Shown piece after piece: positions 4,306 through 4,903 of a stretch of DNA of 17,104 bases (positions are counted from its first letter, which is position 1; each line of letters begins with the position of its first letter). The notes beneath the pieces were generated by a model. It saw nothing but the letters and a program-made list of their open reading frames with translations, did not search any database and had not been told where the DNA came from. Where the stretch lies: the UHGV virus genome UHGV-0120250; one strand, 5' to 3'. Made by a program: the position numbers and the translations under genes. Origin of the DNA: a virus.

Positions 4306-4887
4306 ATGAACAACTCATGGTGGCAGGAACTAATGCATTTTTTCCTGCAAGGAATGACACTTAAACAGTTGATTCATATGCTAATCATCCTGATCATATT
4401 GATTATTGTTATGCCGGTAAGCGTAAAAGAATGGATAAACCTGCATAATCCAGAAATCCTCCCTCATTATTGGATGTATTACATCCTGTTGTTCTGCGTT
4501 AGCTATGTGCTTAACGGTGTAGTTAATTCCGCTTATCACGCTGTGACTGAAAGAATTGAGGTATCCGCTGCTCAGAAGCGCAAATCCAAAGAAGAAAAAT
4601 ATGTGCAAGATTTGTTTGATTCGTTAACTCTTGGAGAAAGAGCGTATTTGGCATTCGCTGTAGCCGCTAATAACCAGCTACAAACGGAAAAGGGAGCTCA
4701 TGAATCAATTTCATTGCTCAAAAAAGGCCTCCTCGTTCGAAGGCCTCCTGCTGTTGGATATCCTGATACCGACCGTTTTATTATCCCGGAAAACTATAGA
4801 CATGAGTGCTACATTAGGTTTGCCGGGAAGGCAGACAGCCTTATGGATGAACTTATCGCTCAGGATAAGCATGGCAAAAACAAGTAA
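4306..4887 (+). CDS. sieB: SieB-like superinfection exclusion membrane protein, 193 aa
   Basis: Rightward ORF convergent with and 16 bp from N, as for lambda/P22 sieB; two N-terminal hydrophobic segments (LIHMLIILIILIIVMPV, YWMYYILLFCVSYVL); AT-rich. Assignment is by position, size and topology, not by sequence recall. Confidence 0.55.
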   Translation: MNNSWWQELMHFFLQGMTLKQLIHMLIILIILIIVMPVSVKEWINLHNPEILPHYWMYYILLFCVSYVLNGVVNSAYHAVTERIEVSAAQKRKSKEEKYVQDLFDSLTLGERAYLAFAVAANNQLQTEKGAHESISLLKKGLLVRRPPAVGYPDTDRFIIPENYRHECYIRFAGKADSLMDELIAQDKHGKNK

Positions 4888-4903
4888 TTAGCAAATGAAT
4901 TTA

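Follow-up and report, generated by a model that had tools for sequence, protein, structure and literature searches.

An intact P22-type sieB gene convergent with the antiterminator gene N in a lambdoid virus genome

The superinfection exclusion gene sieB was already known in the 1970s, and its sequence has been available since 1993; a further copy of it lies in the stretch of DNA considered here, the 17,104 nucleotides of UHGV virus genome UHGV-0120250 (hereafter the window). Sequence comparison identifies the rightward open reading frame (ORF) of 193 codons that converges on the leftward antiterminator gene N as an intact sieB of the P22 type, a known gene that is routinely annotated. A preliminary description of this DNA, made from its letters alone, had suggested a SieB-like membrane protein at this place, a suggestion that is correct but ordinary. 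Very probably, the gene is a functional orthologue of P22 sieB in a lambdoid (HK97-like, lambda-immunity) prophage or phage of Escherichia coli. Since the protein is 83% identical to that of P22 and the regulatory DNA is essentially identical, the scheme worked out for P22, in which the exclusion protein SieB is paired with an antagonist, Esc, and an antisense RNA, sas, is the best explanation of the locus. A predicted winged-helix domain, a conserved repeat at the promoter and a relic of another N allele, together with a deletion in phage HK97, are minor by-products worth noting.

Family and allele of the gene

The encoded protein, whose translation starts MNNSWWQELMHFFLQGMTLKQLIHMLIILIILIIVMPVSV, matches the Pfam family SieB (PF14163) with 79.7 bits (E 2.2e-22), where the family cut-off is 26 bits, and PHROG 1301 from end to end (residues 1-193 of 193, E 1.6e-121); judged by these scores, both matches are far beyond chance. 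It shares 83.2% identity with P22 SieB over residues 1-191 (E 3e-95). A tblastn search of 50,697 phage records finds 98.4% identity to the annotated SieB of the E. coli phages 2G7b, ev207 and PhiR11_1, and ~91% to that of VT1-Sakai and several lambda-like phages. These comparisons uphold the family proposed in the preliminary description. In NCBIfam and PADLOC no meaningful SieB model was matched, the only hits being the chance-level MSC_0624 and 2TM-TIR.

A search of 5.8 billion proteins returned 118 relatives, 115 of which carry PF14163; where a relative has a source name, that name is nearly always 'superinfection exclusion protein B', and the sources include Escherichia, Salmonella, Citrobacter, Leclercia, Yersinia and others. 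Among 5426 complete E. coli genomes, 1014 contain DNA matching the module at 4180-4903, at least 80% of the module being present in 577, and among the matches listed the best ones are SieB genes annotated by PGAP. Two database relatives (P0075 and P0082) carry the same allele with a frameshift near residue 140 into the +1 frame, the frame that the window holds open as a 63-residue ORF (4700..4891); such copies suggest occasional decay, or possibly sequencing errors.

A lambda-type allele was considered and rejected: direct BLASTP to lambda SieB gives 20% identity at E 0.56, which is not significant, and the window gene is therefore assigned to the P22 type. Both proteins pass the Pfam SieB model, that of lambda with 103.5 bits. 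The comparison with SieB of lambda and P22 that the preliminary description proposed thus succeeded directly for P22, and for lambda only at the level of a shared Pfam family. Lambda SieB (NP_597779, 34482..35036) has the same position and orientation beside N and the same outline of two transmembrane segments and a soluble domain, but its coding sequence is another allele and its annotated stop abuts the N stop. Upstream, lambda 34373-34480 is 94.4% identical in nucleotides to window 4178-4285, the segment of the promoter and of sas, and this homology ends ~10 nucleotides (nt) past the transcript start. Ranade and Poteete reportedly located the lambda sieB promoter by its homology to that of P22.

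The closest characterised relative is that of P22 (BK000583, sieB 29758..30336; Ranade and Poteete 1993), with 192 residues to the window's 193; there too, sieB converges on gene 24, which is the N analogue. Nucleotide identity to the window is 96-97% across the P22 promoter, transcript start, leader, Met25 start of Esc and the region of sas; after codon 75 identity drops to 83%, and the last 10 residues differ. The two also differ in host, Salmonella for P22 and E. coli for the window, and P22 has no BstA at the position where the window gene has a BstA neighbour. Nearer still are the SieB proteins of the E. coli lambdoid phages named above and of ev017, along with those that PGAP calls 'super-infection exclusion protein B': they are 98.4% identical (91% in VT1-Sakai and several lambda-like phages), and the 16-bp spacer and the N C-terminus are identical to those of the window. 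These phages differ from the window only in the flanking mosaic, where ral lies upstream and the N, rex or immunity alleles are others.

Table 1. Coordinates of features at the sieB locus and its surroundings (positions in the window)
Feature	Position	Strand	Basis or remark
sieB coding sequence, P22-type allele	4306..4887	+	ATG to TAA, stop included, 193 aa (amino acids); ORF list, Pfam, PHROG
Putative esc, internal in-frame ORF	4378..4887	+	169 aa from Met25; P22 esc annotation, window identical to P22 around the ATG
sieB promoter and transcript start	4239..4276	+	Placed by homology with the promoter and start mapped in P22; activity predicted
Counterpart of P22 sas antisense RNA	4185..4311	-	Spans the 5' leader and start codon of sieB as well as its promoter
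Direct repeat ACCCCTACAG(C/A)GAG, two copies	4242-4258 and 4276-4292		34 bp apart; repeat search
Spacer between the convergent sieB and N stops	4888..4903		16 bp, TTAGCAAATGAATTTA
Antiterminator N	4904..5287	-	127 aa from Met35 of a 161-aa ORF; Pfam N_peptide E 2.8e-16
pL-like promoter	5499..5527	-	TTGACA-17-GATACT; scan, 10/12 matches
Relic of a different N allele (lambda/611R6-type C-terminus)	4110..4196	-	Last 28 codons (4113-4196) and stop 4110-4112
740-bp segment exactly absent from HK97	4164..4903		Part of N relic, sas/promoter, sieB, spacer
BstA-family abortive-infection gene	5745..6650	-	rexAB position; PADLOC BstA E 2.1e-105, PHROG 6287 E 1.8e-132

Regulatory DNA and protein architecture

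Control elements annotated in P22 can be placed in the window almost base by base. In the P22 record BK000583 the sieB promoter is placed at 29690-29720, the RNA start at 29727, sieB at 29758-30336 and esc at 29830-30336, beginning at codon 25. In a three-way alignment with P22 and PhiR11_1, window 4239-4276 shows zero differences from P22 29690-29727, and window and P22 are near-identical from 4178 to about codon 85 (96.8% over the 95 nt upstream of the gene, 96.4% over codons 1-75). The likely -35 element is TACCCC, the -10 element TAAACT at 4264-4269 and the transcript start A4276. Met25, at which the putative esc begins, is kept in at least 90% of 23 relatives. The P22 sas RNA, whose 127-nt sequence PMC13397905 prints in its Table 2, has its counterpart on the minus strand at window 4185-4311, from which it differs at ~4 positions; no Rfam family was found in this region, the window's sole Rfam matches being two transfer RNAs (tRNAs).

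Conservation of this non-coding DNA reaches beyond the P22 allele. In three distant relatives with 44%, 38% and 52% protein identity, the upstream 95 nt remain 78-88% identical, while the third positions of conserved codons 1-75 are only 55-59% identical; the non-coding segment, being more conserved than those third positions, is under selection. Within it, the two copies of the ACCCCTACAG(C/A)GAG repeat span the -35 region and the transcript start, and the repeat columns are invariant in a six-locus alignment that includes lambda, P22, two metagenomic relatives and a Yersinia prophage, the proteins of the metagenomic relatives and the Yersinia prophage being only 38-52% identical. The repeat may be an element of the promoter, of sas or of both.

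With promoter, transcript start, Met25 and sas region all kept, it seems very unlikely that the gene has become a silent or decaying relic that descends from sieB but has lost its expression or activity in this mosaic phage. Frameshifted database copies of the same allele do exist, and some lineages, HK97 among them, have lost the module altogether; the window copy, by contrast, fills the whole of PHROG 1301 and is 98% identical to a 193-residue protein present in hundreds of genomes. An intact gene of the P22 type remains the preferred reading.

A rightward ORF with two hydrophobic segments near its N-terminus had been described from the sequence, and Kyte-Doolittle averaging over 19-residue windows places those segments at residues ~21-39 (peak 3.0) and 54-75 (peak 1.5). 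The loop between them has a slight net negative charge and the stretch past the second is rich in lysine and arginine, a pattern of charge and hydrophobicity that fits an inner-membrane protein with both termini inside. AlphaFold2 models helices at 19-35 and 54-105. Across the family, the N-terminal 70 residues are near-invariant (these comprise the 24 residues absent from Esc, both transmembrane helices and the loop KEW.N..NPEI.P) and the C-terminal ~90 residues vary. With a 23-sequence alignment the model reaches a predicted local distance difference test score (pLDDT) of 80 overall and >90 for residues 105-190, and the C-terminal 94 residues modelled alone score 91.8, with a predicted template modelling score (pTM) of 0.81. 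In these models the cytoplasmic C-terminal part is probably a winged-helix domain. A sequence search of the PDB with SieB gave no match, and no description of such a domain in SieB was found in the literature searched.

Convergence with N and the proposed mode of exclusion

The tail-to-tail arrangement of sieB and N, likened in the preliminary description to that of lambda and P22, does recur in both phages. The gap between the two stops is 0 bp in lambda, 20 bp in P22 and 16 bp in PhiR11_1; in the window it is exactly the 16 bp that had been noted between the sieB TAA and the N TGA, and the end at 4903 first given for the feature is the sieB stop at 4887 plus this spacer. More distant loci, whose proteins are 38-52% identical, keep the layout with an 8-nt overlap (L007), a 26-bp gap (L008) or a small ORF between the genes (L009).

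On the other side of the spacer, the N stop occupies 4904..4906 and the frame stays open for 161 codons (4904..5389). Translation most likely starts at Met35 (ATG 5285..5287), which is preceded by AGGAGG and would give a protein of 127 residues with an arginine-rich motif at its N-terminus, the 34 codons upstream being probably an untranslated nutL/leader. This N is identical to HK97 N at 126 of 127 residues. Its last ~22 codons (LPNVALYAAGYRKSKQLTAR, window 4904-4970) recur in PhiR11_1 N and P22 gp24, outside this stretch the three proteins are unrelated, and the homology with P22 and PhiR11_1 on this side of the locus likewise extends to ~4970. These alignments suggest that this end of N moves together with sieB of the P22 type; the C-terminus of lambda N, next to a lambda-type sieB, is another one.

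No intrinsic terminator is predicted between sieB and N, so that a sieB transcript running antisense into N, as foreseen in the preliminary description, is plausible. In the opposite direction, the region of lambda oL/pL is 90.7% identical to window 5460-5734, and early leftward transcription from the pL-like promoter would cross N and then run antisense over sieB and sas. Such a layout invites a mainly regulatory reading, in which sieB transcription into N would damp N by antisense or interference and stabilise lysogeny, with exclusion secondary. The missing terminator suits that reading, as does the retention of the convergent layout in distant relatives (0-26 bp gap or overlap). It is nevertheless scarcely credible, because pL is already repressed in a lysogen, which leaves no N message to damp; moreover, the sieB promoter is weak, HK97 functions without sieB while carrying essentially the same N, and the SieB protein itself is strongly conserved.

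Exclusion along the lines of P22 accounts for the locus better. In a lysogen, where pL is repressed, sieB would be transcribed rightward from its own weak promoter (~4239-4269, start ~4276). The full-length product would begin with a helix of 24 residues, cross the inner membrane by two helices with a short, highly conserved loop in the periplasm, and end in a winged-helix domain in the cytoplasm, and the internal Met25 would also yield the shorter Esc protein. SieB would abort the lytic growth of superinfecting lambdoid phages part-way, as a defence of the abortive-infection type. A phage carrying the module itself would escape: its leftward early transcription would produce the sas antisense RNA (4311 to 4185), which would shut off translation of SieB and spare that of Esc, and Esc would antagonise SieB.

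This scheme follows what has been written about P22. PMC10883804 describes P22 SieB as halting macromolecular synthesis midway in the lytic cycle of superinfecting P22-like phages, with P22 exempt, and SieA, unlike SieB, as blocking at an early stage. According to PMC7067206 and PMC12197685, sas is made by the superinfecting phage and switches translation between the two sieB products. If SieB were instead a classical entry blocker, stopping DNA injection in the manner of P22 SieA or T4 Imm rather than causing abortive infection, its small size, its place in the inner membrane and the strong conservation of its periplasmic loop would be readily understood, and the name 'superinfection exclusion' hints at just such a block. 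We give this little credence, given that the 83%-identical P22 protein arrests infection midway and that, in the structural model, most of SieB, winged-helix domain included, lies on the cytoplasmic side. In its place by the immunity region, its inner-membrane location and its mid-cycle arrest, SieB resembles other small membrane defence proteins of prophages, such as lambda RexB and the abortive-infection effectors with two transmembrane segments (2TM). Its N-terminal part shows a faint match to the PADLOC '2TM-TIR' model (E 0.0078), but there is no significant sequence relationship to RexB or the 2TM effectors, and SieB differs from them in being a single gene with an antidote isoform, an antisense RNA and a predicted winged-helix domain.

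Several points weigh against transferring the P22 scheme to the window as it stands. The sieB promoter has a poor -35 element, a weakness that explains why a generic promoter scan missed it. The single-sequence fold of sas is no better than that of shuffled sequence (z -0.37), and covariation in a five-sequence consensus fold is weak, with 2 compensatory pairs and a score that 37 of 500 shuffles reach. The promoter scan shows no sigma-70 promoter for sas on the minus strand upstream of 4311, which makes its origin uncertain. The winged-helix assignment derives from a predicted model, and Foldseek with the full-length model returned no match at E <=0.001. The C-terminal half of the protein is ~30% different from that of P22, so the range of targets may differ too. 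Finally, the details of Esc and sas come from secondary citations and GenBank annotation; identity, anatomy and conservation are read from the window, whereas work on P22 is the source for expression in a lysogen, for an abortive phenotype and for a switch by Esc and sas.

Because no minus-strand promoter is visible upstream of 4311 and sas is made by the superinfecting phage, we infer that sas depends on read-through from pL, a link that the primary sieB paper reportedly contains. The division of the protein into an invariant and a variable half may mean that the membrane part is the effector and the winged-helix domain the sensor or partner-binding part. Esc, which lacks only the first 24 residues, would then be a dominant-negative partner. 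Taken together, these ideas lead to a speculative proposal, to which we give a minority chance: that SieB is a membrane-anchored winged-helix sensor of a phage-specific nucleic acid or protein made midway through infection, its invariant N-terminal 70 residues exerting the arrest at the membrane and Esc acting as dominant negative, and that the ACCCCTACAG repeat is a regulatory site in its own right. Neither the sensor nor the regulatory site was found described in the literature searched, which covers only part of what has been published.

A relic of N, a deletion in HK97 and a second defence gene

To the left of sieB lie the remains of another N allele. The C-terminus of lambda N matches 4193..4113 on the minus strand (59% over 27 residues, E 1e-4, tblastn against the whole window), and in phage vB_EcoP-611R6, which has an intact N of 99 residues, the last 28 codons correspond to the relic with 97.6% nucleotide identity up to 4195. 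In 611R6, 8 nt separate the N stop from a homologue of HK97 gp45, just as 8 nt separate the relic from the window's 156-residue ORF. P22, PhiR11_1 and lambda hold a shorter relic, without the ~60 bp between two GTGGTTTGC repeats (4118-4126 and 4178-4186). The preliminary description had supposed that the sieB promoter would overlap an N remnant. The remnant is real, but the promoter stands ~43 bp to the right of its detectable part and falls only within the minus-strand frame that remains open at 4110..4313; it is the 3' end of sas (4185) that overlaps the relic, by ~12 nt.

Phage HK97 lacks precisely the 740 bp at 4164..4903. By blastn, HK97 locus 1-1714 corresponds to window 2452-4163 (98%) and HK97 1711-2580 to window 4904-5730, and at the junction a TCA microhomology restores the stop codon of N. 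Clean deletion of the sieB segment in the HK97 lineage is the simpler reading of these alignments, because in the window the relic runs unbroken through 4163/4164 and in HK97 it is cut short. The converse idea, insertion of a sieB cassette into a lambda-type N, was dropped; HK97 and PA28 show relics of N alleles without sieB. What is kept is more modest: the window, P22 and lambda all have a relic of another N allele upstream of sieB, and HK97 seems to have arisen by deletion.

The surroundings form a standard lambdoid early region, in the order erf, ssb, the HK97 gp45 homologue, sieB, N, pL, a BstA homologue and cI, followed by cII, an O-like initiator, primase/helicase, nin genes and two tRNAs. 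The preliminary description had taken sieB for a second exclusion function alongside the gene in the rex position, and the latter is indeed a homologue of BstA, situated between pL/N and cI (6737..7450, 97% nucleotide identity to lambda cI). By their matches, two stacked defence genes, sieB and the BstA homologue, flank N, and the region is identified as lambda immunity with a different defence cargo, BstA in place of rexAB. The 156-residue ORF (3631..4101, minus strand) is the homologue of HK97 gp45 (PHROG 1636) and has no match in Pfam, NCBIfam or PADLOC; gp45 homologues are widespread in Shiga toxin (Stx) phages, directly downstream of N or of an N relic. The two tRNAs, tRNA-Asn (GTT) and tRNA-Thr (TGT), lie next to each other at 15409-15564 on the plus strand, past the nin genes in the region of late regulation, a placement that resembles that in many Stx-type and lambdoid phages.

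For sieB itself there is little that is new, annotation pipelines already naming this exact allele. The annotation of the window is settled, and the sieB promoter, the start of Esc and the region of sas now have clean coordinates for work with this phage. The confident winged-helix prediction and the sharp division into an invariant membrane half and a variable C-terminal half could help with the question of how SieB kills, and the N relic and the exact deletion in HK97 neatly illustrate the gain and loss of such defence genes in lambdoid mosaics.

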